Source of the DNA: Rhynchobatus australiae
Taxonomy: Eukaryota
Direction: 5' to 3'
Assembly: GCA_034780895.1 (NCBI GenBank)
Contig: JAUZTB010000069.1
Span: 5,763,870 to 5,827,869 of the forward strand
Length of the DNA: 64,000 bases
The notes under the pieces are model-generated. The model was not told where the DNA came from and searched no databases. It worked only from the letters and a program-made list of their open reading frames with translations. Shown here in pieces: positions 6,970-57,160 of the stretch (position 1 is the stretch's first letter; each line of letters begins with the position of its first letter). The position numbers and the translations under genes are program-made.

Positions 6970-7275
6970 GGAGACACAAGAAACTGCAGATGCTAGAATC
7001 TGGAGCAACATAAAAGGCACTGGAGGAACTCAGCAGGTCAGGCAACATCCATGGAAGGAAATGGACAGTTGACGTTTCAGGTTGAGACCCTTCATCTGGA
7101 TTGGAAGAAAGGGGGAGATAGTATAAAAAGGTTGGACGGCAGGGTTGGAGCAATAACTGGCAGGAATAGGTGGATCCATGTGAGGGGGTTGATAGGCAGA
7201 TGAGGGCAGGTATGATATCAGAAGCGGGGAAGTGACAAAGGGCAGAAGATGTTAGGAGGGGAGGAAGGTAGAATC
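6970..7275 (-). mobile_element. Penelope-like terminal repeat (pLTR) with hammerhead-like motif at 7066-7103
   Basis: actgcagatgctagaatctggagcaac...ctggaggaactcagcaggtcaggc...gacgtttcaggttgagacccttcatctgga. The same unit recurs through the window, and other copies are attached to GIY-YIG remnants. Confidence 0.8.
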
Positions 7276-7354
7276 TGTGTTTTACTGTATGTTTGGCTTA
7301 AGTTACTTGTTTAGAAAGTAAATGCACCAGCATAAGATCCACACGTTATGCTTT

Positions 7355-7695
7355 GAGATTGTAGACAGTTTTGGTCACCCTCTTATAGGAAAGGCATGAT
7401 TAAGCTAGAAAGAGTATAAAGAAGATTTATGAGAACATTGCCAGGACTCTAGGGCCTGAATTATAGGGTGAGTTTGAACAGGCCAAGACTTTATTCCTTG
7501 CAACATAGGAGACTGAGGGGTGACCTTTGAAGGTGTTTAAAATCATGAGGGACATAGATAGGGTGAATGCACACAGTCTTTCTCCGAGGGAAAGGGAACC
7601 AAAAACCAGAGGGTGGTAGGTTGAAGGTGAGAGGGGAAAGATTTAAAAGGGACCTAAGGGGTGGCAACTTCATGCAGATGGTGGTGCGTATGTGT
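7355..7695 (+). mobile_element. CR1 LINE fragment (ORF2 C-terminal region)
   Basis: cagttttggtcaccc (QFWSP), then aggagactgaggggtgacc (RRLRGD) and aaggtgagaggggaaagatttaaaagggacct. Confidence 0.8.
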
Positions 7696-8135
7696 AATAC
7701 AATAATCTAACAATCATTTGATATAAAGCTATTATAATTGTCTGGCTTCTTTGAACAAATGTTTAAATTATGCATATTGAGGTTATAAAATCCTGTTAGA
7801 AATATACAGAGCAGTTAACAGGAACGTGATGTTCTGTTTCAGCCTCTTGGGGAATAAATAATGGCTTAAGTGAAATAGCAAACGTCTCAAATCAAACTGA
7901 AGATTTGCATCTAAAATTGGATTCCTCTGATTAACTTATCTGTTTTTGTTGAATTGGTTAGCTGTTCAGTTTTAATTATTTTGTCATATTTGTTTACACT
8001 TCTAATTGCTCCTGCTATTTTTAAATTAATCATGTGAACACTACTCAGAAGTAGCATGAGTTGTTCAGAACAACTTCCTCTTTGGAAGAAAAAGACCAAC
8101 TTTGCTGTAAATCATTTTGTTTTTTTTCATTTCAG

Positions 8136-8227
8136 GTCATATTACAGAGATTGAAGTATTGAATGTTTGGATCAGGTTGTTTGCTGTAACATTCTGCCCA
8201 AGGCCAGCTGCTGAAGGTTGCTAATAA
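8136..8227 (+). other. GAPVD1: Candidate non-coding 5'UTR exon of GAPVD1 (92 nt)
   Basis: Long T-rich tract and acceptor ttttgttttttttcatttcag|G, donor TAA|gtgagt, in non-repeat sequence. Contains a short uORF, ATG 8163 to TAA 8189 (MFGSGCLL). Confidence 0.55.
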
Positions 8228-9754
8228 GTGAGTATGCTTATCTTAGGGGTAGATTTAAAGGCAGTAAATGTATTTAACTTCCTCACTTAAAAGGACCAGT
8301 TTATGCTTTGGTATGTTAGTGTAAGGAATGATATGCAAATAGTGGTCATGTGTGAGCTTAGAAGTGGTCACTTGATCAATAGGGGCATTGTAACAGCTTT
8401 GTCATTGATGTACAAGCCGAGTTGATATCTAATTGTGATGCCTCTCCCAGAACTAAATGTTTCATGTTATGAGTTTATGGAGGTGTTTTTAATTAATTTC
8501 ATTGCTCACTTTCACCCTGTTGTTTTAACATGAATTCCTATCACTGCACTGCTGCCAGTATTTTTTGCAGTTGGCTGTTAGCTGATTTCAGAAATGATTC
8601 TGGTATCATTTTGTTTGCTGGGAAATGTTACCCTTTTCACTAGCAGTAATGGGCTTGGTTCGGTGGTGGAAGAGTTAAAGTGTTACTAAGCAAAGGAATT
8701 TGTGTTAGGTTAAGATCGATTCTTGCTATGTGCTTGGTTAACTACTTGACAGCTATGTGGATGATGAGAGTTACCCCAGAAGGGAGGGCATCACGAACTA
8801 TATTCATGTTCCTGGTCAAATCCAGTGAAGGCCAGAAAGTCCAAGGACAGACAGCACTATATTCCTACCCACTTCAAGTCTGGGAAAGAATTTAAGAATT
8901 GAGGGAGAAATTTAGCTGTAAATATATTGGCTCTTACTCACTTAGTGAATGTTTAGCAGCTTTTATTCTTGTGTTTCAAATAGTAGTCACATTTGGTCTT
9001 TCTATCATTTTGCAGAGTTGACAGATAAAATGTAAATAAACCTTTCTGTTGCCAGCTTTCATTTTCACTATTGGTGAACTGCATGAAACATAAATCAGTT
9101 TGCTTGAAAACTCTTTGTGCAATTGTACACTTTAAACTAGATATTTATTCTCTCGTGACTGTCAAATTTGAGGTTTTTCCCCATAATCACAAATTCACTT
9201 GCTGTTTATCATAGTAGTACTCAGTTACACTTGCAAGCAGAACATATTCTGTACTGTCACAAAAAGCTAGGAAATTGTCAGCATTCTGTTCTGTATGTGA
9301 GTTTCATATCACCCTGAAAGCTTATTGGTGGTGAAAGAAGGCATGGAATTACTTACTGTTGAACAATGTATGAGAACTGATGTGGAAGCCAAATGGCCTC
9401 AGTAACTCAGCTTGCAAGAAGGGATAACCCAACTGCAAAGTCAGTCAGTTGATATTCTTTGGACATGTTTATATTTGTTTTGATTTTCTAGGTTATCAAG
9501 CTGAGAAAACTAATGCCAGGAATAAATTAAGTGAGGACTTCTGCTTTCCATGGTTAACGTCAAATACTTCCAAGTCACAGAATATTTATGACGTGGGAGC
9601 AGACCATTTGGCCAATCTGTCAATGCTGGTTTTCAAAGCTCATCAGCTTAAACCCACCTTAGAGCTGCTGATCTGTAGTCCTGCAGGGCACGCTTCTTCA
9701 GAAACAGCGTGGCTTAATGCAGAGTGATGTTTCTTCTGCTCTATATTATAGATC

Positions 9755-10030
9755 CAAGTTAGCACAGAAACAGGCCCTACAGCCCAACTCATCCATACTG
9801 ACCTAGGTGACCTGAGCTCGTCCCATTTGCCTGCACTTGGCCTACATCCCTTTTCCTATCCATGAACTTATACAAATGTCTTTTAAATATTGTGATTACA
9901 CCTGCCTCTACCAATTCCTCTGGAGGCCCTTTCCATATATGCACCACCCTCAGGTCCCCTTTAGATCTTTCCCCTCTCACCTTAAACCTATGGCCTCTAG
10001 TTTTAGAGTCCCCTACCCTGGGGAAAAACC
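9755..10030 (-). mobile_element. CR1 LINE 3' end
   Basis: Minus-strand ORF FFPRVGDSKTRGHRFKVRGERSKGDLR...IFKRHLYKFMD is the typical CR1 ORF2 C-terminus. Confidence 0.85.
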
Positions 10031-11282
10031 TGGATGCTGCTTGTAACTCCCACCTATGTGTACTTTTTTTCAGAAGCAGAGGGCCAAGCAGGTTGATCCT
10101 CAACCTCTGGGTGTTTGGTGAAGAGGATCAGGCTTTGTACCTGGTAGATCAAAAGCCACATGGCTTGAAGGCGTGTCCTTGAAATTCACTGATACCCTTC
10201 ACTCCTTACTGTTGATAATTTTCCAATAAATGTAGAGTTGTTACCAGCAAATATTAAAATAAAAGTAAAATAATTTAATACTTAATGTTTTTCATGGGGT
10301 CACACTAAGGTAGTGTTTCCCCAAGAATAAACTAAGAGTTGGATGTGGGGTGCACCTGGACTCTCTTTCAGGGCGTCACTCCTTTTAAACTCGATTGTGC
10401 ATCCAGTGAAATCAGTATCTGACCTTAATTTTGTCTTGGACTTGTGCTATTAACCACGTATGTGTTTGGATTCTGAGTCTTCCTGAGGTACAAATAATTT
10501 TAACTGCTGGCTCCGTTTACAGTTGCCAGCTATCATGCAGCACGATTCAACCCACAGAGAAACTTGAGTCTTGGAAGAGCACTCCTTCTCTATGCTAGTG
10601 TGGCACTACCCTTTTCTGCTTAGAGTATGGATTTATTAATACAATGCTTATTGTTCCTAGCTATGGATAGTTTTACCCTTAAGGCCTGTGGCCTTGAGAA
10701 TCTATGTGGAGGCTATCTGAATTTGCATCATAAAAAATCTCTTAAGTAGAGAGAGAAATGAAGGATGCTCATTGCTGTTTTGGATTAGATTTGCATGGAT
10801 ACCTAAAATGGAAAGACTTGTAATTGACTGCACCATTCAGTTCCTCGAATGTTTAATATATTGTTTTCAGGCTAATAATGAGTTCCACTCTGTCCTCTGG
10901 TTTCTGACAGTTGATGCAGCCATCAAATATGAGAGCTTAAACTTTCTCCTGGTTAGGCTCTGTCTTTTGAAGATTGGCAACCTAGCAACTGTTTCCTGTT
11001 GTTGTCTCAAACATAAACCATTGAAGTAACTCAAAAACAAACTATTTTAACTAAACCTTGCAAAGTAACTTCCTCATTTCATCTTCCAGATCCTTTTTAA
11101 AATACAGGTGATAGATCATTGTACACAGCTGTGCAAGAGTTTCTTGGTACTAATTTGTTGGCATGGTGATGAGTTTGTAGGTTATTTTTCTAAGAGTGAC
11201 TTTTACTTTATAAAAGACCACATGCACGTGTGTTTTTTTTGGTAATTCCACTTTGCACTTGTAGAATAGTTAGATAATAGAA

Positions 11283-11726
11283 TGATGGTTCTGCATCTAA
11301 TTTACTGTGTTCAGTTCTGGTCGCCGTATTATAGGAAGGATGTAGAGGTGTCGGAGAGGGTGCAGAGGAGATTTACCAGAATGCTGCCAGGTTTAGACCG
11401 TATGGAATATGAGGAGAGGCTTAAGGTGCTAGGGCTTTACTCACTGGAGAGGAGGAGGATGAGGGGAGACATGATNNNNNNNNNNNNNNNNNNNNNNNNN
11501 NNNNNNNNNNNNNNNNNNNNNNNNNNNNNNNNNNNNNNNNNNNNNNNNNNNNNNNNNNNNNNNNNNNNNNNNNNNCAGGTTCAAGAGGTTGTTGGATAGG
11601 CATATGGAGGAATGTGGGATAGAGGGATATGCGGGAGGAAAGGGTTAGATAGAGTGAGGTGTGGTTTGATGGGCGGCACAACACGGTGGGCCGAAGGGCC
11701 TGTTTTGTGGTGTATTGTTCTATGGT
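11283..11726 (+). mobile_element. Young CR1 LINE 3' end (gap inside)
   Basis: [31 protein letters not shown]...[21 protein letters not shown]; tail gggccgaagggcctgtt...gtattgttctatg; CpGs retained. Confidence 0.9.
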
Positions 11727-12554
11727 AACATTACTTGTTTATAATTACAATGCAGTAACAGTCTTTTAAAAAATATAAAAAGAGAAGATGCAAAAGAACA
11801 TTACTATGTCACTTTACTGCTGATGACATTCTACTGACAAGGAACCAAGTATAACCTTGTTCCACCTTGTTTTATTTATGTAGCCTTTTGTACATGTCTG
11901 GATAGTGCATCAGATTGTTATTTTTCATCCTCTTGACACATTGCTGCTTTTGTACCCAATACAAAAGGCTGCTGTTAAAAGCAAGCCCTTGCTTCCTATA
12001 AAGTGTGAATGATCTTCTGCACTTTGCATCTGTTAGTTTGTGCCTGGTGTGGGAAAATAAATCCCTTGTACAACTGGTGAGTTAAGTGTAAATAACTTCA
12101 GATGCCTTTTATTTTATTGACTTCTCCACCTTTTGGACAAAAATCACTAATATTGTAATGACTGAGTATCTCTGGTTTTAAAGGAAACATCACTGATTAT
12201 TAGGACATGAAGCAAAATGGCAATGGAAGTGCAAAGCACAGGTTTTGTAATCACTTCAAAAATCTGTTCTTGATTATTTGTGAGAAAATGCATAGATGTC
12301 AAACATTTTGTGCTTCCGGGATGCACCATGCCAACTCTCATGTGCTGGTATTCATTCAACTAATCTTATTGTGGAACTAGAGTTATGTCTCTTTCCAGCT
12401 TTGAAGCCTGAATTGGGTTAAAAGGGTAAAATTAATACCTTTTATAATTACCATCAGATGGTCAGTTACTGATCGAGAAAAAAAAATAGTGGAAATCTTC
12501 AGCAGGTCAGACAGTGTTATGGAGTGAGAAAAAGACATGGCATCTTGGTTGATA

Positions 12555-13037
12555 TTCTTTCTTTTTCAATCTTTTTTATTGGTTTCAAATCAATACAAAT
12601 GGTATATGGCATCAAAGTTGTACACATCTTACAAAGAGATCTGGTTATCACTCAAATCTTAGATAACCATACAATAAAATATAGAAAAAGCAAAGACCAA
12701 CGATCTCTTAGTTAATAGAGTATAAAAGAAAGGAAATAAAAAAAGTTTATTATATACATTAAAAAAAGAAGAAACCCAAATCAAAATATAAAAAAATTAT
12801 AAACAATATAAACTAAGCAAACAAAAATTTAAAAAAAACAAAACAAAGACTGGGCCAAAATTTTTCAATAGAAACAAAGCAATATTATGTCGTCAACTCC
12901 GATCCTCCAAATTAAAAAGTTAATGAAGGGGGAATCTACGTCGTGTGAAAATATTGGATAAATGGACTCCAAATGTCTTCAAATTTAAGCAAAGGATCAA
13001 CAGTACTACTCCTAATTTTTTCCAAGTTTAAACATGA
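12555..13037 (-). mobile_element. L1-clade LINE 3' end (ORF2 C-terminus, T-rich 3'UTR, AATAAA tail)
   Basis: Minus strand reads SCLNLEKIRSSTVDPLLKFEDIWSPFIQYFHTT* (stop at 12936-12938), like the fish L1 LEKI...F..IW.PF end. It finishes with ccaataaaaaagattgaaaaagaaagaa and abuts a pLTR fragment at ~12490-12555. Confidence 0.75.
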
Positions 13038-14313
13038 NNNNNNNNNNNNNNNNNNNNNNNNNNNNNNNNNNNNNNNNNNNNNNNNNNNNNNNNNNNNNNN
13101 NNNNNNNNNNNNNNNNNNNNNNNNNNNNNNNNNNNNNATAGCGAAACTGCGCAGTCATTATTTGTACTCGGCCGATGTCTATATAAACGATAAGTAATGG
13201 TTAAATAATTAAGTACATTTCTTCCTGAAGATTGTAGAAGTTGCTCACTGGTGTGTAACAGCCCTACCTTTGTGATTCACATTGCAATGTAACTAAATGT
13301 GACCTTTGTAAGCAGCACTCAAAATCAGTAAGTGGAACCAAACTTTTCTAAAATCAGTTTTATGACTAGTTTGAGAACTTGTTGGTTTACTGAGATGAGT
13401 GTGCAGAAGTAGTGACTGTTCCACAATGTGTCATGTAGATTCATTTTTTTTACATAAACTGAGCTTTTCTGAATTTTGTTTGGATTGGAGATATTGCATA
13501 CACAATGATATTAACAGACTTGTGAAAGATAAGTAAGTTGTTGAGTGTGAAGATAAACTCCATGTTGTTTGCCAGCATTATATTATTTCATTCCTTTAAT
13601 TCAATTTTTTTTAATGATAGTAATTTGCATATAGAAAATTTCTGGTAAGAATGGCAATTGCTTTGTGTTTGTAAGAGATGCTAGAACTGCTGAATAATTT
13701 TTCCAGATCGAAAGACATTATTACACTCTGGATGTTGAACATCACTGTCTTTAATTGATTTTGGTCTTTAGTTACTGGCTTTTTTTGTGTTTTTTGCTTC
13801 TGTACTGATGTTTAACCTTTGATTATAAATTGGTTAACGTCAGTCACAACTGATTCACTGTTTAGAGCAGCAGAAGAAAAAAAGTTTGAATCCAATTTTT
13901 TTTTCCCCTCTGGTATACTTCACCTTCATACTGAATCAATTAATTTGAGATTTCATATTTGCATTCTGAAATCCTGGTACAATGGATAAATGCCAATATA
14001 TAATTAAGGTTTGAAATAAGATCAGGCATTTTAAGTAGATGCACAATTAGTCTGCTTCTGTAACAAGATTTTCCAGTTTAACCTGCTGAGGAATAATTTC
14101 TTTTAATGTTTATAATCTTTAAATGTATTACCATTCTCAGCAAAATAAATCAATAGTTTTGTTTGGGCTTACTTTTTCTTTCATACAGANNNNNNNNNNN
14201 NNNNNNNNNNNNNNNNNNNNNNNNNNNNNNNNNNNNNNNNNNNNNNNNNNNNNNNNNNNNNNNNNNNNNNNNNNNNNNNNNNNNNNNNNGGGCTTACTTT
14301 TTCTTTCATACAG

Positions 14314-14442
14314 ATTCAGTTAGGGAGTTCCATGTATATTGATGCATGGATGGTAAGAGTTTGGAAACATTGCTTTGGATGATAATAAGCAAAGAATAGC
14401 AAATTAAGTTGTTTACTAATTGCCTAATGCCATGTAATGCTG
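14314..14442 (+). other. GAPVD1: Candidate non-coding 5'UTR exon of GAPVD1 (39 nt with donor after 14352, or 129 nt with donor after 14442)
   Basis: Acceptor cttactttttctttcatacag|A and two strong donors, ATG|gtaaga and CTG|gtaagt. Splice-signal evidence only. Confidence 0.45.
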
Positions 14443-15470
14443 GTAAGTAATTGAAAATACTTAACTGAGGGACTTCAGTTAAGCCAAAAGGAAGTTTCAA
14501 GTGATTCTTTAACACTTCAGGCTGTATAAAGGTAATTGTGCAGATTATCACACTGGTTGGAGAAGCCTGCATTTTATTTGTGGGACAGCTGTTATTTTTG
14601 ACAATTTTAAAAAGTACTACTTAAAGCAGAATAAGTAATAAAGGAATAGAAATAATTAGAACCACCGATCACCTCTTTCATTGGAGAGCTTTGTCTCTTA
14701 AAGCTTTACTTGGATATGAATTCAAAATATACTATAGTGAAAACATTAATTCAGCAAGAGTAAAGGTTTAGAACTTTTAGTTATTTGCATGTTGCTGTTT
14801 TCAAGCTTGTGTTTCTTAGAGCAAGTGGTGGAAACAGCAAACAGCATGACATTTTAAATTCTTCACTCTTCACTTTTTCTTTTGTCATTCAGTCCTGCCC
14901 CAAAGTTATTTAAATTAATTCCATTTTGGAACTTCAATTTGTTTGTGCAATGAGGTTATTGAAGTAGTATATTCCATCAGATCATCTTGAAGATAATCCT
15001 TGTAAGTCACCTACCATGTAAAGTATTTTCTTCATGGGACTGTCATTTCCTCTTAAATTAGTGTTGCTATATTGCTCCATTATTGGTGAGGAGCCTTGTT
15101 ATTTTTAGCACTAAAGCATTAAATTTTTGACATCCAACATAATTTTAATGTTCTTGTTTACACTTTATAAAGGTCTGCTGGCAATTATATTTTTACCTAT
15201 TGATTTAGTGTGCTCTGTGTAATCGGTTCAATAGCAATTCATTTTGTGGTCATTTTATTTATTTCCTGACACACATCTTTATCATATGCACAAAGATTGT
15301 TTTTGGTGCCTTTCTTGATGCCTTTATATGAGCATTGATTTGATATTGTTAAACAACTACTGTAGAAATGTCTTGCATCAATACTTTTAAGAAAAAAATC
15401 ACTCATGGAATTCGGTGTTTCTAGCATTCAAAATTGATTCTGGACTGCTAGGCTTGCTAGGCTATTTCAG

Positions 15471-15677
15471 AGGGCAAAAAGCAAACTGCTGGAAGAAATT
15501 AGCCGATTAGGCAGCATCTGTTGAGGCAAAGGGATGGCTGAAGTTTTCAGTCAAGACCCCACATCAGGAAACATCAACCATCCTTTTGCCTCCATAGATA
15601 TTGCTTGATCTGCTGGTTTCTTCCAGTAGTTTGCCTTTTGCTCCAGATTCCAGCATCTCCAGTCTTGTGTGTTTCCA
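15471..15677. mobile_element. Fold-back pair of Penelope-like terminal repeats (~75-bp inverted arms)
   Basis: 15471-15547 is approximately the reverse complement of 15569-15644. The pair is inserted in an older SINE. Confidence 0.8.
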
Positions 15678-17484
15678 TTTCTGGGCGTGTTTGCGTTAAT
15701 CATCTTGTTGTTGATTTTGAATTTGCATTCTGGCCAGGTAATTAGAGCAGGTTTCCTTTCCTAACTTAGTGAACCAGTTGGTTTTTAATGACAGTCTAAA
15801 TGTTGCCATTTTCAAAAACAAAATTTCAAATTTAAAATGGATACATTGAAAGTTGTAAGTCAGCCCATAACATTGTAGCAGTCAGTGTAATTAGTGGTAA
15901 TAGAAAAAGCCACAAACACCCAGCATGTTGGGTAGCATCTACGTACAGAGATACTGAGTTAACATTTTGGGTTGATGGCTTGTTAGGGGAAAGTTGTCTG
16001 AGAAATTTTATAATAAGTTTATTCCTTTCATCATGTCTGTGTGAACTTGGTCATTGGGTGAATGCAAATTTCACTTTACTTTTTGCATTACAAACAGGCC
16101 CATTCCATCTGTGCTTTCCAATAAAGTGTCAAATTACAGTACCAAATTTTCTTTTTAATAACAGGATGAGGCACCTTGCTGAATATTTACTCTTTAATCT
16201 TTATACGCTGGAGCTGATGGTGTCTTTTTATTATTCTTGAAGCAGCTGGTATTTGAATTTCTTTTAGTCATTGAGAAAAACTAAGATGATTTGTATTTGG
16301 TAATTAACATTTTGTTCGAAATAGTTAAAATGTGGGCAATTTGTCATGTTATTGGAGCTGTTTCTGATTTAGTTTTTACTTTTTTGGGCTCTTAACTGTA
16401 TAAAGCAAATGCAAGGAGCAATATAGAACATGGCTGCGTTTTGGGACTGGATGGGACTTTGCATCCTGCAAATTTTGTATTTATATTTTGTATGTGTATT
16501 GGCTTCTGATTCTCAGATTGTTTGCTTCAGTAATCCCTTGATTCTTAATGTACAGGGTATGGTACTTCATTTAAATAGTTTCTGGTATTTTTGTGGTAGA
16601 TGCATCACCCCACTGTCATGTGTCATAAAATGATTGTAAATCAGAATATAACACTGATTATCAGTTGTACATGTGGAAAAATGTTGCTTCATTTAATCCT
16701 GTATTAGTAAAAGGTAACTTAAAACGTACTATTTTTTCCATTCTTTTTGAAATTTTTGTCATATTCTCTTAACGAATTAAATGTGAAATTAATGAAACTA
16801 AGAAGAAAATCTTTGAAATGGCATATTGCAAGGATAGTTAGTGCTATAATTCTCCATTATTATTTATTGAATTTTATTAACAAGCGGGTGAAAATGTGTG
16901 GCTGTCAGTGAAGTATTACCTGGTAAATATTTTGTAACTGGAATAAATTAGATTGACAATATTTTGTGCTGAATTAATTTAACGTCATTATCCTGTCATC
17001 ATGCTTATTAATTTGGAAGTTTTTTTTACTTGCAAAAATTAGTAAGCAGCTCTGTTTCATCGGCACAGAATATGCGAATACATCCATAAAATTGGAAGCT
17101 CACTGCACTTAAGTTTGTTGCCATGGATGCATTAGTAAAGGAGATAAATACAATCTGCCTGGATTACTCCTGTGCATCTGGGAAAGTATATAATCATGAC
17201 ATTGTTTTAAGCAGACAGACAAATCTGTATCTCTTGCTTTTGGCCTTGACAGTTGTGTTATTTTGGAGGATCAAAGGGAGGATTCCAAATTTAGGTTTCC
17301 CGTGTGATGAATTAATTTTGCAGTGGCCAGTATCATTAACTCGATGCACATTGTGGAGTTAACTTGATTCGCATTGTAAAATGTTTCTGGCAACTTATAA
17401 CTGCTCAGTTTGTACCTATCCAGCTGGGTCTTAATTTTTTTGCCTTGCTTTTACAGTTGGTATACCCTCCTGTGCCATTTGAAG

Positions 17485-17669
17485 ATGGTGAAGCCTGATC
17501 TTCACACTCTGGCCCATCACCTCAAGCAAGAACGTCTTTATGTGAACTCTGAAAAGCAATTGCTTCAACGGTTAAATGCAGATGTGCTCAAAACTGCAGA
17601 AAAATTGTACTGTTCAGCATGGATTGCAAAGCAACAGCGAATTAACTTGGACCGTCTAATACTGACAAG
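17485..17669 (+). CDS. GAPVD1: GAPVD1 first coding exon (exon starts 17457, ATG at 17485)
   Basis: MVKPDLHTLAHHLKQERLYVNSEKQLLQRLNADVLKTAEKLY...RINLDRLILT matches the recalled vertebrate GAPVD1 N-terminus. Acceptor ttttacag|, Kozak AAGATGG, donor AG|gtaaga; 185 nt, ends in phase 2. Confidence 0.97.
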
Positions 17670-42110: not shown

Positions 42111-43660
42111 TGTTAATTGTTTTGTCTGTTCATATAAATTTTCTTCGCCGAAATATCACCACGAAAAATTATAAGATGATTGAAGCAATCTTCAATGGTA
42201 AATTTCAACCAAATTGGATAGCACTTTCAAATTATCTTCTCTTTATAACTGGGAAACTTTATCCATGTGTTTACCATATGGATTAGCCTATGGAAGTTGG
42301 ATTCAGAATGGAATGTTCTGTGAAATAGTTCAAAGGCTTCCGAGATTTAAAAAAATTTTGAATTAGAAATTCTGAGGAGGTTTAGCATCAGACTCTTGGC
42401 ATAACAAATGAATGCAAGCTTTATTACTAGTAAAGTTACTATGAAAATCAGATGTATTTTGGCATTAGAATTGCTAATTCATTTAGTTCAATTGACATTG
42501 TGATGCACTCCAGATTATTAAGAAATTGTACGTAGATAAGTTATTAGCTTCTGAGAACTGAAAAGATGAAGGTGCATCATCTAAGCTTTGAGACCGTAGC
42601 TACTATTATTTGGGACGTGATGTGAAGCTACTGAAATATCCATTCATACATGAGTGCAATAGACCAGTGTTCTATGTAATACCCATGGTATCACATTTGA
42701 AGTTTAAAGAAAAATATAATCAGAGACCTTAAGTGCTACTTTTTTTCCCTTTTATAATGAGTTATCACCATCGGTGCTAAGCTCTAGTAGATGAAATTGC
42801 AAAGGAGTACCAGAATTGTTTGTTTAAGCAGTTCACCCAGTGAGTAATAATTCATTGGGTGCTGGTTCCTTGTCTAACTTGTCAGTGAATGCAGATAATT
42901 CTGAGTAGGTGACAGATTTCTACACTCAGTATAAGTGATGTTGTTAATATAATCACTACCAAAGTTTGCTGATTTTAAAAGAAATTGTGCATGTCCCAAA
43001 ACTTTACATGTAATTAGTCATGCAGCCAGAATTATTTTGTTTGAACTTGATCTTGAACTTGACAAGATTTAATTGTAAAAAGTCCCTTTTTGGAGGCCGT
43101 CCCCACTCCACCTCCCACCACTTTGTTTTTACAGAACACATTTTTAAAAAAAAACAAGAAGCACAGCCACTTCACTGAATCCATAAACTACAGATCTGTA
43201 ATACTCTGTGCTCTTTTGGCAAGAGGCACAAAAACTTTTTTATTCATTTGGGGGTGGGAGGGTTGTTTGGTATCTTGTTGCATCATTGGAAAACAATTTG
43301 TTAGAACAATTTGAATTTTTGCTGATATTTCTTGATCATTAATTTTAATAGGTCATATGATGCAAATTAATTTCCAAAAGTGTATGAAAACTAATTGTTT
43401 GTGTATTTCCTATGAAATTACTACTACAGCGACTTTCTTTAACAGTTACTTGTATGATGTCTTTCACCCAGAACTGTAGTGCTGTGTTCTCATGCCCTAC
43501 AAATGCTGTCATTGTAGTTTAGAATTCAGCAGTTTAGTCTTTCACTATAGAACCAAAGCATGCTTCTTGGTTCATCAAATGAAGAAATGAAGAAAAAACT
43601 AGTGACAAATGCACATTGATTAATGCAGAAGAAATTAACACGTGAGCTGAAGCAAGAGAT

Positions 43661-43679
43661 TTGCACCACCTGGTGGCCA
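43661..43679 (-). promoter_or_regulatory. Candidate CTCF binding site
   Basis: Minus strand TGGCCACCAGGTGGTGCAA versus the CTCF consensus TGGCCACCAGGGGGCGCTA; lies in non-repeat intron sequence. Confidence 0.6.
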
Positions 43680-44019
43680 TTTTATCAACCTGCCTTTTTA
43701 CCTACTGCAACTGAATTTGGATTGTGGTGAAGACGGAATTTGAGAGTTGCTGGAGAGTTTTTAAAAAGGAATTGGACTGAAAAACTCTAGNNNNATTTAA
43801 ATTGTTTTAGCAGCAGTGCTACTGTTTATTTTCTAATCGTATGGGTAAAATGGCCAATAATATAACGGTAACTGCATCAAACAGGTAAAATATTTGTGTG
43901 CTAAAAATATGTAAAGATTTGGCATTTAGTTTTCAGCTGGCAGTCCAATCATGTCCATAGATTTATTATGGACACAAAAATTTAAACTTGAGTCTTTCAC
44001 ATCAGTGGACCATCCTGTT

Positions 44020-44870
44020 GCATTTCCTATCGAATGAAATACATGTATTTGCAGTCTATATCAATGATTTGCTCAAGTGGACCCAATGTAATATCTTTAA
44101 GTTTACTGATGACATGAAACCAAGTGAGAGAATGTGAATTGTAATGGAGGTGCAATGAAGCTTCAAGGGCATATAGACTAGCTGAACAAGTGGGCAACAA
44201 CATTGCAGGTGGAGTACAATGTGGAAAAGGTGTGTGGTTATCCACTATGGTAGGAAAAAGTAGAGATGCTGAGTATTTTAAATGGTGAGAGATTGGGAAA
44301 TGTTGAAGTTCATTGAGACCTGATTTTCCTTGTACACAAGTTACTGAAAGCCAACACGCAGGTTGTTAGGAGGCAAGTAGTATATTGTCTTTTATTTGCA
44401 AGGCTATTAGGTTATAAGGATCTCTTACTAAAATTATAAAGGGCCTTGGTGAGACCACACGTGGACTAGGCAGAATTTTGGTACATACCAAAAAAAAGGA
44501 TGTATTTGCTGAAGAGAGAATGCACTAAGGATTGACCAAAGGCTTATTATTTCAGATGAAGACCTTTTATTTTCTTCATTGAGATGTACAAGATTTAAGA
44601 GGGCTTGATGTTTCCCCTGGCTGTGGACTTGACAACTAGGGGTTAGGAACTCAAAATATGGGGAAGCCATTTAGGATTGGAATGAGGAAATCTTCTTTGC
44701 TCTGGGAGTGGTGAATCTTTGGAATTCTTTACCCCAGAGAATTGAAGAGGCTCTGTCATTGATTAGATTCAAAACAGATTGATCTAATTCTGGGAATAAA
44801 AGGAATTGAGGGATATGGGGATAGGTCAGGAAAATGATGTTTTTAGTTTGAAGATCAGCCACGAATTTGT
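44020..44870 (+). mobile_element. Degenerate CR1 LINE 3' region
   Basis: aagtttactgatgacatgaaac (KFADDTK-like), gccttggtgagaccacacgtggac (ALVRPH), gtggtgaatctttggaattctttacc (VVNLWNSL). Confidence 0.8.
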
Positions 44871-44929
44871 ATGTCAAAGCAGGCTGGGGGAATGTGGGGA
44901 TTGAGTGGCATCTACCTACTCCTCATTCT

Positions 44930-45080
44930 GCTGTTCCTCTGCACAGATAAAGGGTCTCAATGCAAAACATTGAGGGTCCATTTCTCTTAGATGCTGCCTT
45001 CTTCCAGCACTGAACTCTTCCAGCAGCTCATTCTTATTTTGTTCGAGATTGCAGTATCCGCATTCTCTTACGTCTCCAAG
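44930..45080 (+). mobile_element. Penelope-like terminal repeat fragment
   Basis: cagataaagggtctcaatgcaaaacattgag...agatgctgcc...ttccagcag. Confidence 0.65.
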
Positions 45081-45948
45081 TTAAATACTATGTGGCCCTT
45101 GGATGTTTGAGCGATTTTAATGAGAGTTAAAATCTTTACCCTTGTGATACTGAAGGCACCCTTTTGGCACCTGAAGTCTTGGCAGTTCTTTATTAGGAAG
45201 GGCAAAATTTTACATCTTGCTGTTCAGGGCTTTTCATCAAGGTAGAGAANNNNNNNNNNNNNNNNNNNNNNNNNNNNNNNNNNNNNNNNNNNNNNNNNNN
45301 NNNNNNNNNNNNNNNNNNNNNNNNNNNNNNNNNNNNNNNNNNNNNNNNNNNNNNNNNNNNNNNNNNNNNNNNNNNNNNNNNNNNNNNNNNNNNNNNNNNN
45401 NNNNNNNNNNNNNNNNNNNNNNNNNNNNNNNNNNNNNNNNNNNNNNNNNNNNNNNNNNNNNNNNNNNNNNNNNNNNNNNNNNNNNNNNNNNNNNNNNNNN
45501 NNNNNNNNNNNNNNNNNNNNNNNNNNNNNNNNNNNNNNNNNNNNNNNNNNNNNNNNNNNNNNNNNNNNNNNNNNNNNNNNNNNNNNNNNNNNNNNNNNNN
45601 NNNNNNNNNNNNNNNNNNNNNNNNNNNNNNNNNNNNNNNNNNNNNNNNNNNNNNNNNNNNNNNNNNNNNNNNNNNNNNNNNNNNNNNNNNNNNNNNNNNN
45701 NNNNNNNNNNNNNNNNNNNNNNNNNNNNNNNNNNNNNNNNNNNNNNNNNNNNNNNNNNNNNNNNNNNNNNNNNNNNNNNNNNNNNNNNNNNNNNNNNNNN
45801 NNNNNNNNNNNNNNNNNNNNNNNNNNNNNNNNNNNNNNNNNNNNNNNNNNNNNNNNNNNNNNNNNNNNNNNNNNNNNNNNNNNNNNNNNNNNNNNNNNNN
45901 NNNNNNNNNNNNNNNNNNNNNNNNNNNNNNNNNNNNNNNNNNNNNNNN

Positions 45949-46032
45949 TAGAGGATGGAAAACTCCATGGCAAACCAGATAAAACCTTGCGCTTTTCTCT
46001 ATGCAGCGATAATATGGAGGGAATATCAGAAG
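45949..46032 (+). CDS. GAPVD1: GAPVD1 coding exon, 5' part hidden in N gap 45250-45948
   Basis: EDGKLHGKPDKTLRFSLCSDNMEGISE then G|gtgaag. By comparison with the recalled ortholog, about 15 codons and the acceptor are inside the gap. Confidence 0.92.
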
Positions 46033-47001
46033 GTGAAGCTTTTCCTATGGGCGAGCATTAAGTTTCATGTAGTCCTTGCCCCAGTCTTCATGGCTTGATT
46101 TCATTCCCAGTGCCTTCATGCTTTGCACTTAAATTCTCGTCTTTTGTCTTTAAATCTTGTGCAGTCTCACTTCAGCCCATCATGGCAACCTCCTCCAATC
46201 TAGGTTCTTGCTTTCCAATAAATTCTTCTTTCCTTTTGAATTTGTTTTTTTTTCTTATCCATATTCACCTTTTGCTCCATTTATGACACATCAGATTCTG
46301 AGGTTCTCTTATTACCTCTGTAAAATGTTTTTCCTTTCCAAGCTACTAATTCTTCACAAAATCTCCTTGGGAAATAACCCATTAATTTGGCTAAGCTGTA
46401 GGTCACCTCTCCCAACTTGTCCCTTCCTGGCTTGGTGTATGTTTTGTATGAACTACTCTGAAGTGCTGAGGGGTTTTCGTTATTGTGTTAAGGGGATTTG
46501 GGGGGAAAATATGTAGAATTGTGGATTCTAAGAGCACTTAATGATAAATTCTTTGGTATTTAAAACTCAGATTTTAATATTGATGCCATCCCTATGTTGT
46601 TACAGTCATTCTGATTTTTAAAAATTGAACAGGGTTAAACAGTATTTAACCTGACCCTTGGAGTACTGATGAATGATTAGCATCCAAAATATTGCCAATC
46701 AGAAAGTCATCAGTTCTTTATAATAACCTGTATATTGTTACACCAGTAAAATGTGGCTACTGTTACCAGTGGTATCATAATCAATTCAGTAAATCTATTA
46801 GTTCTGTAATTTATCAGCTGGATTGATCTAGTTAATGAATGTTGACATGGAAGGGAGTTTAAAAAGAAACAGACTTTGAAGGTGAGTTCAGCAAAATGTG
46901 TGTTACTGGGTAGCAGGATATGAAATCCATTCAGGATGTTCCTGTCTTTTTTTTTGTTTGCTTGTTTATTTAATTCACATAGTAATTTGTATTTCTAATA
47001 G

Positions 47002-47127
47002 GGCCTTCAAACCGTTCAAACTCTGTGTCCTCATTGGACCTGGAAGGAGAATCAGTCTCTGAACTTGGAGCAGGACCCTCTGGAAGTAATGGTGTTGAAG
47101 CTTTGCAACTGTTAGAACATGAACAAG
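47002..47127 (+). CDS. GAPVD1: GAPVD1 coding exon
   Basis: (G)PSNRSNSVSSLDLEGESVSELGAGPSGSNGVEALQLLEHEQ; aatag| and G|gtcagc; 126 nt, phase 1-1. Confidence 0.96.
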
Positions 47128-48311
47128 GTCAGCAAAATAGAAAGCAGGTCACGTTGCTTGAAAGTTCAACCAGTGGAAGATTTTCTTTTTAAGGACTGTT
47201 TCCAAGCAAGCCACTGAATGCATTCACTACATCTAGTTTCTAGTTAACTTGTGCATTGCTCTAGTAAGAACTTTTGGAAGGAACCCTGCTCATCAATGAT
47301 AACTAATGCTTTTCTCCGCTCCTTCCTGCATTTTAAATTAATTCATCCCCTTAATTAGATCATGGTACGATTTAGACTAACATGTGACATACAGATTTCT
47401 GGTTTGTGCAGCACTTTCCATCTCTCTTTTAATTGGGATTGATGGTTTTTTTCAGGATATTCCAGATTTCTTTTGAGAGACTGGATTCCTTTGTTGTTTC
47501 TTCAGGTAGGTTAGGGTTTCTTTTCACTCCTATTTAGCTGATCAGCACTCTATTTAGAAGTAGATTTATTGTTTTAGTGGTGGAATAGTATTCAGCTAAT
47601 GGAGAATGAAACGTGATGGAGTTGTTTTGAGATTTATTAGTTAAGATAATTGATTTTTTGTTTGTCAGGTGGTTACTGAGGAGGCTGGAATTGATGCAAT
47701 TCCAAAATTGCCGAACACATCCTGCCACTTGGGCTGTTTCCTCAATATATACCAATAAGAATTTTGTACTCTGGGTAGTCTGAGTGTTTTCCTCCCTGAT
47801 GTCGTTTGTGGCATGTATTGAGCCGATGATGCCCAGTGATAGTATTGCAGGGTTGGTTGATCCCAACAGTTAGATATGAATGGTTTACCAATACCTGTTC
47901 ACCAAGTCTGGTTTAGGTATGCAAGATGGAGCTAAAGATGCTGTCCATTTCTCAATGTGTTGAAGGTATACGCTGTAACCATTGCTAATTATAGTGCAGG
48001 AAGGGAAGTGCTTGACTTCTGGGTCTAATTTTGTATTTGCTTACGGCTTCTTGCTGAGCCAGTTCTTAGGGCTACAGACTTGTCTTTCATGACACATGAT
48101 TTGTGAGACAAAGAGCTTAAAAGACAAACTCAAATGCTTGCTTGCACCATTGGCCATCTGCTGTTGTGGTTATTATTTGATTTCTGTTAATTAGAAGCAA
48201 CGAGTGCCCATGTTCTGTTTTTGTTGGAGTAAAGTTGAAGGTTGCATTGACATTCACAAGTGTGACTTCTTAGTAAGATACTCAATGTAACAGATTCATG
48301 CATCAACATGA

Positions 48312-48670
48312 GAGGCATGGTGTCGTAGTGGTCAAGTTACAAAACTACCAGTGAGAGACATGCACCAATGATCCAGCGGCACTAGTTTGAATTCGACCAT
48401 GGCAGCTGAATAATTTAAATTCAGTTATTTAAATTAATCTGGAATTAAAACTTATTTCAGAAGCCGTAACCATGATTGTTGTAAATACCCATGTGGTTCG
48501 CTAATGTCACTTGGAAAGAAATGGGCCACCCTTTCCAGGCTGGCCTGTGTGTGACTTCAGACCCATTGATGTGGTTGACACCTAACTATGCCCTCCAATT
48601 CAGTGGCAGTAAGGAGTGAATAATAAATATTAGGTTGCTAGTAAAGTTTGCATTCTGTGAGCGAATGATA
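48312..48670 (+). mobile_element. Near full-length tRNA-derived SINE
   Basis: A-box-like tggtgtcgtagtgg, B-box-like gtttgaattc, body ggttcgctaatgtc...ctggcctgtgtgtgacttcagaccc...gtggttgac. Reverse-strand relatives lie at ~5780-5950, ~15680-15800, ~37640-37990 and ~59880-60010. Confidence 0.7.
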
Positions 48671-49830
48671 AAATATTGCGTGGGGGCTGCAAAGCCACAT
48701 CATTGATCTTTTCAAGCTTTTGTCGTTGTCTTTAGCCTTTTTAAGCAAAGAACATTTAATCTATTGTACTCTAATTTGGAGTATAAGGGCGAGAAATAAA
48801 TTTGAAGCAGTCTTAATTATAGTGCGTGAGCTAGCCATGTATTTGGCTTCAGAGTTCTGATGAACTTGCCTCTGGGCATGGTCCCTCATTTCTTTTCTGT
48901 TAAGTTCAGTTAGTGAGAGACAGATTCTGTCTGAACTCAGTTCTGTACCCAGCAGTTCTTCTTCGATAAGTTGATACTCAACTTAAAAACAATCTATTCT
49001 TAGAACTTTTAGAACCCTTCACGTTTGCTGCAGTTGTAACTGTGTTATTATGTTCCAAAACTGTGGATGATTTGCTGCTGCAGAATGTCTAACTACCAGT
49101 ACGCCAAAAATGAATACTGATCTCTGACTCAAGTAAATCAGCAAGGGTTCATTACCAACAATACTGTTTTACCATCCACAAAACTAAATGATCATGAAAA
49201 TTTCTTGTGTACATTTGAACTTCAGAAAACAAAATGCAGGAGCAAAACAAGTATGTGAACTTGTAAAATTCAAGTGACATTGTCCAAATATGAATGGTCC
49301 ATTGCTGCTTAAACCTAATTTTCCTTTTTTAAAGGAAACTTATTTCTGCAATTAAGTAACACCCACGTGGTAGAGTACACTTTGCTGATTTTCATTTAAG
49401 CAACTTTGTGAAGTTCAGGAACATTGCTTCAGTAACAAATTGGGTTGGGGGAGTGAAATTGGCTTTCATAAACAAGGATGTTGGAGACTGTAGTCTAGAA
49501 AACATGACTTTTGAGTTGCATGGAATATAGTTTTGTGAACAGGACATTTACAAATGGCTATGTGATAACGAAATGCCATATCACAGCTTGCATTCAATTC
49601 CATATTTGTTACAACATGCTTCCATGTTATTGTCCTCAAATGTACATCTCAGCCAAATTTCTGTTTCTACACTTGGCAAAGTGCTTTGAGAATATCCAAT
49701 TACAGGTTTACTAGATGGTAAACTACAGTTTTAACTCCATAACTTTTTTTTGTTCAGAGCAGAGCTTATTTTAAATCTATTAACTAAAACCTCCAGCAAA
49801 AATTAATAATATTTCTTTATTGTAATTTAG

Positions 49831-50004
49831 CCACCACCCAAGACAATCTGGATGACAAACTCCGAAAATTTGAAATTAGAGACATGATGGGGCTGACAGA
49901 TGACAGGGATATTTCGGAAACTGTGAGTGAGACTTGGAGCACAGATGTCCTGGGAAGTGATTTTGATCCAAACATTGATGAAGATAGACTGCAAGATATT
50001 GCAG
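49831..50004 (+). CDS. GAPVD1: GAPVD1 coding exon
   Basis: (A)TTQDNLDDKLRKFEIRDMMGLTDDRDISETVSETWSTDVLGSDFDPNIDEDRLQDIA; atttag| and G|gtaaat; 174 nt, phase 1-1. Confidence 0.96.
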
Positions 50005-50509
50005 GTAAATAATTAAGTTGATGGTACTTGTACTAGTATTTCAGCACTTATGCAAGTATTTTGATACAGGATTCTGATGTATGACAAATGCTTCTAAAAC
50101 ATTGCTAAGGCACGGCGTTGCATATTGTTCTAAACAAAATGCTTTAGTATGGTAATTGTGTTTTCAATTTGCTGTAGAAAAACATAACATTCATTGTGTT
50201 AAATATGCCTGTCCTCTTAATAAAGAGGTGTGGTAAATTTTCTAGTCTAATGTGTGATAAATATCAAGTGATTAACAGAAACACTTGTGCTGCCCACCAA
50301 AATGTTGCCTTTAATGAAAGCAATTATGTTCAACAGAATGGTCTTGGAAAGATTCTTTCATTTTAGTTTACTTCTAATTGTTCTGCAGATTTACTAGAAA
50401 ATATGGGAATTGTCATGTTTTGCTGGTTATGTATTTGATAAAGTAATTTTGCTGAATAACTTCAGCACAATTACTCATGGCGAAACACATATGGGCTTTG
50501 GTAGATGAA

Positions 50510-50990
50510 AACCCAAACAAAAAGATGCTGGAAATCTGTAATAAAATTTTAAAAAGTGCTAGAAGCACTCAGCAGGTCAGGCAGCATTTGTGGAAGGAGA
50601 ATGGAGTTAATGTTTCAGGTTGAAGACCCCTCCTTGGAACTGGGAAAGAAAGGGTGGGGGGGGAAGCAAATTGGCTTTCAGTTGCGGAGAGGCTGGAGTG
50701 GGGATCTATAGAACAAAGGGAATATGTTTCCAGTATTGTCTGTTTTTATGGTCTTTACTAAGCTTGAAGTATCCTGAAACAGCCAAAAGAGTATTATCTA
50801 CAATTACTTTCTTGATTGAATGTGTACCTGGATGCCATTTTCCAACTGAGATAAGAGACTTGCAGATGTTGGAATCTGGAGCAACAAACAAGACGCTGGA
50901 GGAACTTGACAGGTTGGGCAGCGTCTCTGGAGGGAAATGGACCCTTCATCTGGACTGAAGATTAGAGGGGAGATGGCCAGTATGTTTTAT
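50510..50990 (-). mobile_element. Two Penelope-like terminal repeats (older at ~50510-50700, younger at ~50853-50990)
   Basis: agatgctggaaatctg...cactcagcaggtcaggcagcat...ttaatgtttcaggttgaagaccc; and gcagatgttggaatctggagcaac...acccttcatctggactg. Confidence 0.75.
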
Positions 50991-51099
50991 ATTATATATN
51001 NNNNNNNNNNNNNNNNNNNNNNNNNNNNNNNNNNNNNNNNNNNNNNNNNNNNNNNNNNNNNNNNNNNNNNNNNNNNNNNNNNNNNNNNNNNNNNNNNNN

Positions 51100-51270
51100 T
51101 CTTTGGGTGTATTTAAGGCAGAGATTGATGGGTATATGAGTAGCCAGGGCATCAAAGGTTATGGTGAGAAGTCAGGGGGAGTGGGGCTAAATGGATCAGC
51201 TCATGATAGAATGGCGGAGCAGACTCGATGGGCTGAATGGCTGACTTCTGTTCCTTTGTCTTATGGTCTT
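51100..51270 (+). mobile_element. Young CR1 3' end
   Basis: gtatttaaggcagagattgat...gcggagcagactcgatgggctgaatggc...tcttatggtctt; closely similar to ~51915-52085. Confidence 0.8.
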
Positions 51271-51679
51271 CATTGAGACTTTCATCTTGGACTTAAAGCT
51301 GAAGCTTATGCCACTCAATTTGTCGAGCCTTCTCTAAACCTTTCAAGCTGCTGACAGCTTGCACTGACAACCAGCTGAAAGGGGACACATCCATTGCCCC
51401 ATGCAAATGGAGGTGCCTTTTGAATAGGGTTGGTGGGTGTGCTTCTCCCAATCCATTTGTGCAGTATAACTCTGAAGAAACTGAAGTCTTTGTTGCTCAA
51501 ACGATTTACATTTTAATTACAGTGTCGAAACTGCGACTACCAGCAAGAAGCTGATAATAGCTGTATCTACGTCAATAAAATCACACATGAAGTCGAGTAA
51601 GTAGATCTCATCTGTTGTGTGTGCCGGTTAAAGCAGAGCAGGGTTGTGACATGGGTGACTGGTTAATTATAGATCTTTG

Positions 51680-52902
51680 GAGACGTAAGAGACTGCAGAT
51701 GCTGGAATCTGGAGCAACACACAAACCTTTCAACATTTCGAATGGTGAGTCTAGTGGGTGGGTGAGTCACGAGTGGGTGAGTCCAGGACTAGGGGGCATA
51801 GTCTTAGAATTAGAGGGTACCCATTTAGGACAGAAATGAGAAGAAATTTCTTTAGCCAGAGGGTCATGGATTTATGGAATTTGTTGCCATGTACAGCTGT
51901 GGAGGCCCGATCATTGGGGATGTTTGAGGAGGAGATTGATAGGCATCTAATTAGTCAGGGTATCAAGGGATTATGGGGAGAAGGCCGGGAATTGGGGTTA
52001 GATGGAAATAGTTTAGCTCATGGTGAGGTAGCGGAGCAGACTCGATGGGCTGAATGGCCTACTTCTGCTCCTTTATCTTGTGACCATTGGAGGAACTCGA
52101 GAGGTCAGGCAGCATCTGTCGAGGGAAATGGACAGTGGACATTTCAGGTTGAGACCCTTCACCTGGACTGAAGGAGGGGAGACAGCCAGTGTCATAAGGT
52201 GATGGGGAGGTGTGGAGCAAGAGCTGGCAGCTTATAGGTGGATCCAGGTGAGGAGAGGTGATAGGCAGGTGGAGGAGGGGGAAGTGGAAATAGTGACAGA
52301 GGCTGGGAGATGGTAGGTGGAGGTGACAAAGGGCTGCAGATGGTGGGATCTGATAGAGGAAGGTGGAGCATGGAATCAAATTAGGGAGGTGGGGTGGGCA
52401 GATGGGAACAGTGGGGGGAGGGGACGACGTGATAGGCAGATGGAGTGGGTGGAGGAACAAGGTAATTGGTTGGGGAGGGTGTAGGAAGAACAGCACATTT
52501 TGACTCTGCTTCCGCACTGACCCCTCTGTCCACGGTCTCTTCAGTTGCTACAGACAGGCCAATCGCAAATTGGAAGAGCAACATTTCATATTCTGCTTGG
52601 GTAACTTGCAATGGTATGAACATTGATTTTTTTTTTCATACTACAGGTAGCCCACATGCCTGATGTTCTTCTCCCACACCCACTCGCCCATCCACCTAGT
52701 TTCTTCCCTTTATTCACCTTTTCCATCCCATCCCCTCCCCTCCCCCTTCCCTGCCTGGTTCCATCTGCCTATCATCCCCTCTTCATCTGGTTCCACCTAT
52801 CACCTACCAACCCCTGTCCCAATCCTCTCTACATGCTATACACTGGCAATCTTTTCATTTCCCCGTCAGTCCTGATTCAGGGACTCGGCCTGAAACATTG
52901 AC
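51680..52902. mobile_element. Composite Penelope-like element: minus pLTR (51680-51725 and 52086-~52490) joined to a plus GIY-YIG remnant + pLTR (~52495-52902)
   Basis: Plus strand SVHGLFSCYRQANRKLEEQHFIFCLGNLQ / GMNIDF at ~52525-52630. Hammerhead-like motifs at 52133-52170 (minus) and 52867-52902 (plus). Confidence 0.85.
51726..52085 (+). mobile_element. Young CR1 3' end inserted into a Penelope-like repeat
   Basis: VGESRTRGHSLRIRGYPFRTEMRRNFFSQRVMDLWNLLP...; it splits ggagcaacacacaaa from tggaggaactcg. Confidence 0.9.
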
Positions 52903-52909
52903 GTACACA

Positions 52910-57020: not shown

Positions 57021-57160
57021 ATATCTTCATCTTGGTGGACTGGGGGAAGAGATGAAGTTAAACTATTTTCCTTTTTTAATTGCTCAGTTATAGAGTCTTA
57101 AAATCTATTTGAGAAATGATATCGTAGTTAATATAGAAATACTCTTGAACTATTTTTCAG

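Follow-up and report, generated by a model that had tools for sequence, protein, structure and literature searches.

The window, the whole 64,000-nucleotide stretch of Rhynchobatus australiae DNA analysed here, carries the gene GAPVD1 on its plus strand together with a scatter of truncated Penelope-like element (PLE) 3′ ends, several of which hold a decayed hammerhead motif. The features are as follows, with subfamily letters taken from a clustering of sampled copies of the repeat.

8135..63816, plus strand: GAPVD1; 5′ exon at 8135-8228, first coding exon at about 17458-17669, coding exons mapped to 63816.
6969..7251, minus strand: PLE 3′ end with a complete tail, from subfamily B (core position 4 is A); motif at 7066-7103.
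15468..15676, no single strand: two decayed PLE ends in back-to-back arrangement, forming a fold-back pair.
19607..20325, minus strand: PLE 3′ end of subfamily C/D (C at position 9); motif at 19692-19729, GIY-YIG remnant at 20204-20325.
20400..20511, plus strand: inverted stub 5′ of the 19.7-kb copy; its motif (C at position 9) is decayed.
29136..29567, plus strand: PLE 3′ end of subfamily A, whose 5′ core is canonical; GIY-YIG remnant (the last codons) at 29136-29185, motif at 29478-29508.
44944..45084, plus strand: additional decayed end (A at position 4).
50523..50654, minus strand: additional old end, like subfamily E.
50853..50983, minus strand: additional end of subfamily B (A at position 4) whose motif has lost its 3′ half.
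51678..51726, minus strand: likely tail of the 52.15-kb copy, split from it by a fragment of about 360 bases that we take to be LINE-like.
52085..52382, minus strand: PLE 3′ end of subfamily B, with A6G as well as A at position 4; motif at 52133-52170.
52508..52902, plus strand: PLE 3′ end with C at position 9 and G8T; GIY-YIG remnant at 52508-52629, motif at 52867-52902.

Five motif strings had been given in a preliminary description of this DNA, and all match the window letter for letter (in element orientation 7103-7066, 19728-19693 and 52170-52133 on the minus strand, and 29479 onward and 52867-52902 on the plus strand). The five copies are mutually homologous, with blastn E values from 1e-35 to 1e-8. 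They had been called intronic, which is right for the four that lie in GAPVD1 introns; the 7-kb copy, which may or may not be intronic, precedes the first 5′ exon mapped by about 0.9 kb. Relative to the gene, the 29.5-kb and 52.87-kb copies are sense and the 19.7-kb copy is antisense. That no copy is intact also holds—a descriptor scan that allowed canonical cores as well as the position-4 and position-9 forms returned 0 whole motifs in the window. Two changes break helix I in the 7-kb copy, the 29.5-kb motif has lost GAA and the 3′ helix II arm to a 7-base deletion, and the 52.87-kb copy stops right after helix I. The window holds more copies than had been listed: a downstream-flank profile finds 14 matches in 64 kb, beyond which lie the 52.87-kb copy, the 20.4-kb inverted stub and a tail piece at 5.67 kb. 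The stub runs into N, so that its left end is approximate; its layout resembles that in the Fig. 2 legend of PMC8557442.

Within the window, matching a loose core pattern counts for little by itself: the 16 matches exceed the 6.3 expected by chance, and they are mostly unrelated, with 2 of the 16 belonging to the five-copy set. The decisive evidence comes from genome-wide counts, which settle the family as real. The consensus previously proposed, an intact motif of 34 letters, has 299 exact copies in the genome against 0 for the reversed pattern; the downstream flank is matched 190 times in a sample of 1,000,000 bases, where reversed sequence gives 0, and the count extrapolates to about 4x10^5 copies per genome. 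Intact motifs are a small part of this total: 1 of the 190 sampled copies has one, and two patterns recover at least 1,192 whole motifs genome-wide. Most of 893 pattern matches belong to subfamily F, and a first look for the nuclease gave 43,690 candidates in the genome.

The Penelope-like origin of the repeat is borne out by long loci elsewhere in the genome (L093-L112), in which the reverse transcriptase (RT) motifs DKG and YIDD, a CX4CxxC linker and a GIY-YIG nuclease are found. RT and then nuclease pieces occur in that order in L099, L100, L103 and others, with every copy frameshifted. Database relatives from two rays share 60-69% identity and carry PF26215, and look-alikes in Atlas have PF26215, GIY-YIG and RVT_1. 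The three GIY-YIG remnants reported in the window are all genuine by DNA profile search (52508-52629, plus strand, E 4e-16; 29136-29185, plus strand, E 5e-6; 20325-20204, minus strand, E 2.5e-4; best control E 3.9); tblastn recovered the 52.5-kb remnant alone. Pfam named none of six PLE protein pieces, nor did PDB name any. Of 46 loci selected by their nuclease, 22 have the motif 3′ of it; among the remaining 24, many are masked or truncated at that place. A set of 20 long loci yielded neither an intact ORF nor a 5′ pseudo-LTR (pLTR); in L100, the most complete copy, the sequence directly before the ORF is masked, and short same-strand pairs occur elsewhere. The element probably belongs to the Neptune clade, an assignment based on the linker motif (of the CX2-5CxxC type common to Neptune and Nematis; PMC8557442) rather than on a tree.

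The ends of the copies are those of a coding element. Their 3′ ends fall into two clusters, at about +62-68 and +95-105, some 35 bases apart in subfamilies A, B, C, E and F—a pattern that agrees with the optional PLE tail of 30-40 bases (PMC8557442). Inverted 5′ stubs are present at 20.4 kb and 15.5 kb. Target-site duplications of at least 7 bases were absent from five of six searched junctions, the sixth (29 kb) giving one doubtful 7-mer. We also considered a conserved ATG after the motif as the ORF start behind a splice acceptor and rejected it: the frame shifts or meets stops between subfamilies, and F mostly has no AG.

The motif itself has the sequence of a minimal type I hammerhead, as had been proposed, and the proposed consensus fits the minimal PLE form published in PMC4209133. 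Its dimer-type ACGU centre is present in all five pattern sets, and in sampled copies the palindromic CG decays to TG/CA, as expected. The Rfam check suggested at the outset fails: no hammerhead family matches at E<=10, either in the window or in six loci with whole or core-variant motifs. Rfam models evidently miss the minimal form, and such motifs are left unannotated. Covariation is thin, amounting to one compensatory change (helix I, pair 2.1-1.1) and two one-sided G-U changes; one count used pattern-selected copies and leans toward structure. At the innermost pair of helix I, subfamilies B, C and F have C-G where E has U-A (in 18 of its copies, with Watson-Crick pairing at 0.62 versus 0.43 when shuffled). 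The outer pairs of helix I fail in C/D, E and F, and the helix is 3 base pairs long in C/D and F. A compensatory A-U pair at 10.1-11.1 in E proved partly true, with 10 A-U and 10 G-U among sampled copies and A in 6 of 72 exact matches.

In structure prediction, monomers fold no better than shuffled sequences (z -1.3 to +0.4), the double-hammerhead fold is predicted to be 2-10 kcal/mol less stable than two monomers, and in monomers with U at position 7 the core is predicted to be locked in a rod. Within the oldest subfamily the core letters are kept no better than the flank (0.853 vs 0.863). Core A/T letters are better kept than the flank in clusters B and C (1.0 vs 0.88 and 0.91 vs 0.85), which we ascribe to mixed subfamilies and alignment; selection is possible too. 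RNA reads from a related organism that cover the repeat come from other loci and show no pile-up of read starts or ends at the predicted cut; fragmented libraries are unable to show one, and the lack of it therefore counts as no evidence.

Undoing CpG decay had been thought to lead every copy back to one consensus. This is so for the subfamily of the 29.5-kb copy; the other four copies carry core letters that are subfamily-wide. The 7-kb and 52.15-kb copies share A at core position 4 with 12 of 13 sampled subfamily B copies, and the 19.7-kb and 52.87-kb copies share C at position 9 with 27 of 29 sampled C/D copies. Because both letters are fixed subfamily-wide, the odd core letters are not all decay. 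Exact matches to position-4 variants number 66 for A, 45 for C and 3 for G; since C also gives 45, the count for A is no proof by itself, and it is the linkage to the flank that proves the point. Two clusters of 8 copies (fold-back junctions or noise) were left out of the subfamily clustering. The canonical core, CUGANGA(H) with GAAA..UH, is found in A, E and F and is absent from B and C/D. Both the youngest subfamily, F (about 6% divergence, measured on 5 copies), and the oldest, E, have this core; C3, G5, A6, G8, G12-A15.1 and U16.1 are majority letters in all subfamilies, and positions 7, 17 and loop II vary across them. Together, the core-altered subfamilies make up 39 of 82 scorable sampled copies.

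The association of PLEs with minimal hammerheads is known, and is here extended to a shark- or ray-type genome. The family shares much with the minimal pseudo-LTR hammerheads described by Cervera and De la Pena (2014; PMC4209133): CUGANGA plus an extra base, G10.1, GAAA, a C-G palindrome without loop III, UH and a short helix I, a terminal-repeat position behind an RT-GIY-YIG ORF, and thousands of dispersed single copies. The consensus of that paper, CUGANGAH, helix II and GAAAN-palindrome-UH, is matched by subfamilies A and F. Helix II has 4 base pairs here, and the supplement file of that paper that was searched has no elasmobranch and neither the position-4 A nor the position-9 C string. 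In copy number, the roughly 4x10^5 ends estimated here stand against 4,000-9,000 whole motifs in coelacanth and Xenopus, whole motifs here numbering at least 1,192. With the Neptune EN+ PLEs of PMC8557442 the family shares a C-terminal GIY-YIG, the linker, DKG, an inverted 5′ stub and the optional tail. The Anolis Poseidon element PAc (PMC11167929) likewise has a minimal hammerhead in its pLTR and two downstream end sites that define a tail; however, it belongs to another clade, and its ORF starts inside the hammerhead, whereas the frame of the post-motif ATG is not kept across subfamilies here. Animal non-LTR retrozymes (PMC7229834; 10.64898/2026.07.22.740005) also combine a type I hammerhead with vertebrate PLE-related repeats, but they form non-coding tandem arrays, in contrast to the dispersed truncated ends with ORF remnants seen in this family.

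We are highly confident that the window motifs are broken minimal type I hammerhead sequences, located in the 5′-truncated 3′ ends of a very abundant PLE, probably of the Neptune clade, and that these copies are likely inert. By analogy with PMC11167929 and PMC4209133, the element protein would nick DNA and prime reverse transcription at two sites that closely follow the motif; nearly every insertion would therefore have the motif, however short it is. In tandem master transcripts, the ACGU palindrome would let two motifs pair and cleave the RNA after GUC or GUU; from the same two papers, such dimer cutting would be weak and probably helped by protein. Once inserted, copies decay with no selection apparent, and they do so most quickly at CpG sites, among them one that contains the catalytic G12. 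The masters of subfamilies B and C/D would have had A at position 4 and C at position 9, respectively, and the spread of these subfamilies suggests that they had no need of fast cleavage.

How far the ribozyme matters to the element is a separate matter. The motif may be a vestige of a ribozyme-bearing ancestor, kept for another role (protein binding or as a promoter) or simply hitch-hiking, with no subfamily cleaving usefully; this concerns activity alone and fits a PLE origin. The core-altered masters behind nearly half of the scorable copies speak for it, as do the 3-base-pair helix I of C/D and F and the predicted rod in monomers with U at position 7. So do results elsewhere: hammerhead mutants of the anole Poseidon are unimpaired for insertion in vitro (PMC11167929), Naiads multiply without canonical hammerheads (PMC8557442), and 8 of 9 Xenopus dimers went uncleaved (10.64898/2026.07.22.740005). 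Against it, F and E have retained the canonical core through changes at positions 7 and 17 and in loop II, a pattern that fits selection on masters for the hammerhead core. We consider a pure vestige unlikely on present evidence, while giving it more weight than any other rival.

Much less probable is that the short copies are non-autonomous retrozymes spreading through circular RNAs made by the ribozyme. Most copies are indeed short and without an ORF (the nuclease lies within 1.2 kb upstream in 12 of 80 pattern-selected loci), a few same-strand pairs stand 76, 371 and 406 bases apart, and one chondrichthyan has retrozymes with a mean length of 363 bp. However, the 5′ ends are variable and reach into ORF remnants in 3 of 5 copies, the window has no tandem array, and the copies end at PLE tail sites rather than at the cleavage site: the copies derive by truncation from a coding element and are not tandem retrozymes. 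That the host has kept intronic copies to cut GAPVD1 pre-mRNA, in the manner of the ultraconserved intronic hammerheads of amniotes, is scarcely credible and already strongly disfavoured; two of the five copies (29.5 kb and 52.87 kb) are sense to the gene, but both have broken cores (GAAA deleted in one, G8T plus C9 in the other), and the density of profile matches in the window (14 in 64 kb) is like that of the genome sample (190 per Mb).

As found, the known link between PLEs and minimal hammerheads reaches a shark- or ray-type genome, and little else is changed; the core-altered subfamilies are the sole lead. The role of the PLE hammerhead is still open (PMC8557442, PMC11167929), and canonical and altered sister subfamilies with countable copies make the question testable, as amplification success set against cleavage rate. 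A bolder reading, a little less likely than not, is that core-altered masters account for about half of the genome's estimated 4x10^5 Penelope ends, with older and younger subfamilies canonical. If this is true, either the family would be a natural experiment, showing in vivo that PLEs can amplify with no need of ribozyme cleavage, or it would have two new active cores (for example, with an extra base between G8 and A9).

The five motif strings quoted in the preliminary description, at 7, 19.7, 29.5, 52.15, and 52.87 kb, are present in the window letter for letter and belong to mutually homologous copies. None is intact, as that description held—a structural descriptor scan returned 0 whole motifs—and a profile of the downstream flank alone marks 14 places in the 64-kb window. 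The proposed Rfam check gave no support, with 0 hammerhead matches reported in the window or in six loci picked for whole or core-variant motifs.

The host gene is GAPVD1, with coding exons spanning 17485 to 63816 on the + strand (tblastn, two stored GAPVD1 proteins); the 24.3-kb exon encodes a RasGAP domain and is a 97-99% match to shark and ray GAPVD1. Four copies (19.7, 29.5, 52.15, and 52.87 kb) have mapped exons on either side and are intronic, as originally described; however, the 7-kb copy lies upstream of an exon at 8135-8228. That exon is joined to 17458-17669, with 29 letters ahead unplaced, in a related organism's contig (run kind presumed RNA). Hence, the 7-kb copy occupies a first intron or immediately precedes GAPVD1.

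Several other features accompany these copies. A LINE-like 3' fragment, presumably CR1-type, occupies 51727-52087, between the 52.15-kb Penelope-like element (PLE) end and the apparent tail of that end; as a nested insertion, it would be later than the PLE copy. At 59280-59857, long inverted arms enclose a fragment that we take to resemble an L2/CR1-type ORF, and at 6043-6246 an identical 52-base repeat flanks an N gap on both sides, probably an assembly artefact.

The Penelope assignment is well founded. A DNA profile of the nuclease confirmed all three GIY-YIG remnants (~20200, ~29170, and ~52550), and RT pieces (DKG, YIDD), a CX4CxxC linker, and GIY-YIG follow in that order in twenty 9.5-kb stretches around nuclease matches, where every PLE ORF is frameshifted. 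DNA searches gave 2,975 first-look candidates with the 52.15-kb copy as query (40 scored) and 43,690 with a nuclease fragment from locus L040 (150 scored). The nearest stored proteins to the PLE ORF are four from two rays (60-69% identity), with PF26215, and Atlas look-alikes carry PF26215, GIY-YIG, and RVT_1. The available text of PMC8557442 gives this kind of linker as a marker of Neptune and Nematis, and vertebrate PLE clades in the accessible part of 10.64898/2026.07.22.740005 are Neptune and Poseidon only; a Neptune element is therefore the probable assignment. Two stored ray proteins, annotated "divergent protein kinase domain 1C isoform X2" and "chitinase domain-containing protein 1 isoform X1" (P0002 and P0004), match the PLE ORF at 62-65%; a faulty join between gene models or exonisation of PLE sequence is the probable cause.

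The motif lies 3' of the nuclease in 22/46 nuclease-selected loci, mostly 330-450 bases past the nuclease end; in many of the remaining 24, the sequence beyond is masked or ends early. In each of the five pattern sets (subfamilies A, B, C, E, and F), copy 3' ends form two clusters, ~+62-68 and ~+95-105 past the motif, a pattern resembling the optional 30-40-base PLE tail that PMC11167929, in the portion available, ties to two reverse-transcription start sites. A stretch ~20-55 bases 3' of the motif, where a short hairpin is possible, is more constant between subfamilies than the motif helices, and is a candidate protein-binding or priming signal.

Truncated copies are abundant. In 100 stretches of 10 kb, taken at round coordinates on large contigs (796,434 non-N bases), the downstream-flank profile found 190 copies and 0 in reversed sequence, which scales to ~4x10^5 PLE ends per 2.23-Gb genome, a figure that includes both arms of fold-backs. 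Among the 190, the structural descriptor found 1 whole canonical motif and 2 that are whole but have A at position 4. Both G12 and the ACGU centre lie in CpG sites and show matching decay. Two exact patterns for whole canonical motifs gave 299 and 893 genome-wide (controls 0). The single consensus previously proposed stands as a canonical pattern with 299 exact copies, but four of the five window copies are B or C/D type.

Subfamilies were defined by clustering 169/190 sampled copies, without N or edges, on the downstream flank alone; two clusters of 8 (junction artefacts or noise) were left out, 3 copies are low-confidence, and the 82 copies retaining the 5' half of the motif form the scorable set. 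Divergences, which are upper bounds for mixed clusters, are ~19% (non-CpG) in E (31 copies), 16% in C/D (29), 12% in A+B (17), and 6% in F (5). Subfamily E has a canonical core, a U-A innermost helix I pair, GUU, and a 5-base loop; F is canonical with A at position 7 and GUU; C/D has C at position 9 in 27/29 and a 3-bp helix I. Within A+B, position 4 is A in 12/13 TC-type copies versus 0/4 TT-type copies by flank. Exact-match counts agree with these states (position 4: A 66, C 45, G 3; position 9: C 63, G 7, T 4), and the position-4 A matches have a distinct flank of their own, with A at 11.4 in 63/66.

Nuclease sequence lies upstream of the motif in 3/20 B, 1/30 C/D, and 8/30 A loci, and likewise in two position-9 window copies; hence, subfamilies B and C/D were ORF-bearing. 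From mutagenesis of minimal hammerheads, U4 and A9 changes are expected to lower activity. Core changes mostly cut activity sharply, yet a U4C viroid variant remains viable (PMC3088659, available portion); hence, the B and C/D hammerheads may be weak rather than dead.

Subfamilies A and F conform to the published PLE hammerhead consensus (PMC4209133, as far as its supplement is available). Helix covariation, a suggested check, amounts to one compensatory event, pair 2.1-1.1 (C-G in B, C, and F versus U-A in E), whereas at 10.1-11.1 and 10.4-11.4 a single partner changes, giving G-U; low shuffle values count copies rather than events, as each event is common to many copies. Folding predicts that the 5' core pairs with a CGUY stretch in monomers with U at position 7, and that a double hammerhead is less stable than two monomers. 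These monomer and dimer predictions are compatible with the weak or protein-assisted PLE hammerhead activity reported in the available parts of PMC4209133 and PMC11167929. At locus L295 (1495-1620), two whole F motifs form a natural tandem on the same strand, at a distance of 76 bases, which is predicted to pair its two helix II regions rather than form a double hammerhead.

PLE hammerheads are on record from fish, coelacanth, frog, and reptiles (PMC4209133, in the part available), and hammerhead retrozymes from one chondrichthyan. Our literature search found no paper on this elasmobranch PLE family or on position-4 A or position-9 C core variants; Lunse et al., Repbase, or Dfam may record them.

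In RNA reads from a related organism matching window 7020-7055, the commonest extension past the shared flank is subfamily F (727 and 1,215 reads); the youngest subfamily thus dominates matching RNA in that organism. Passive intronic transcription likely lies behind these reads, since they come from both strands. Reverse transcription would start just 3' of the motif, so that even short insertions would retain it; tandem master transcripts could cut as dimers, and cleavage of single intronic copies would be impossible. A fold-back pair of PLE ends at 15468-15676 draws a spurious Rfam mir-3122 match (E 0.016, far under gathering), and PLE hairpins of this kind could yield false miRNA calls.
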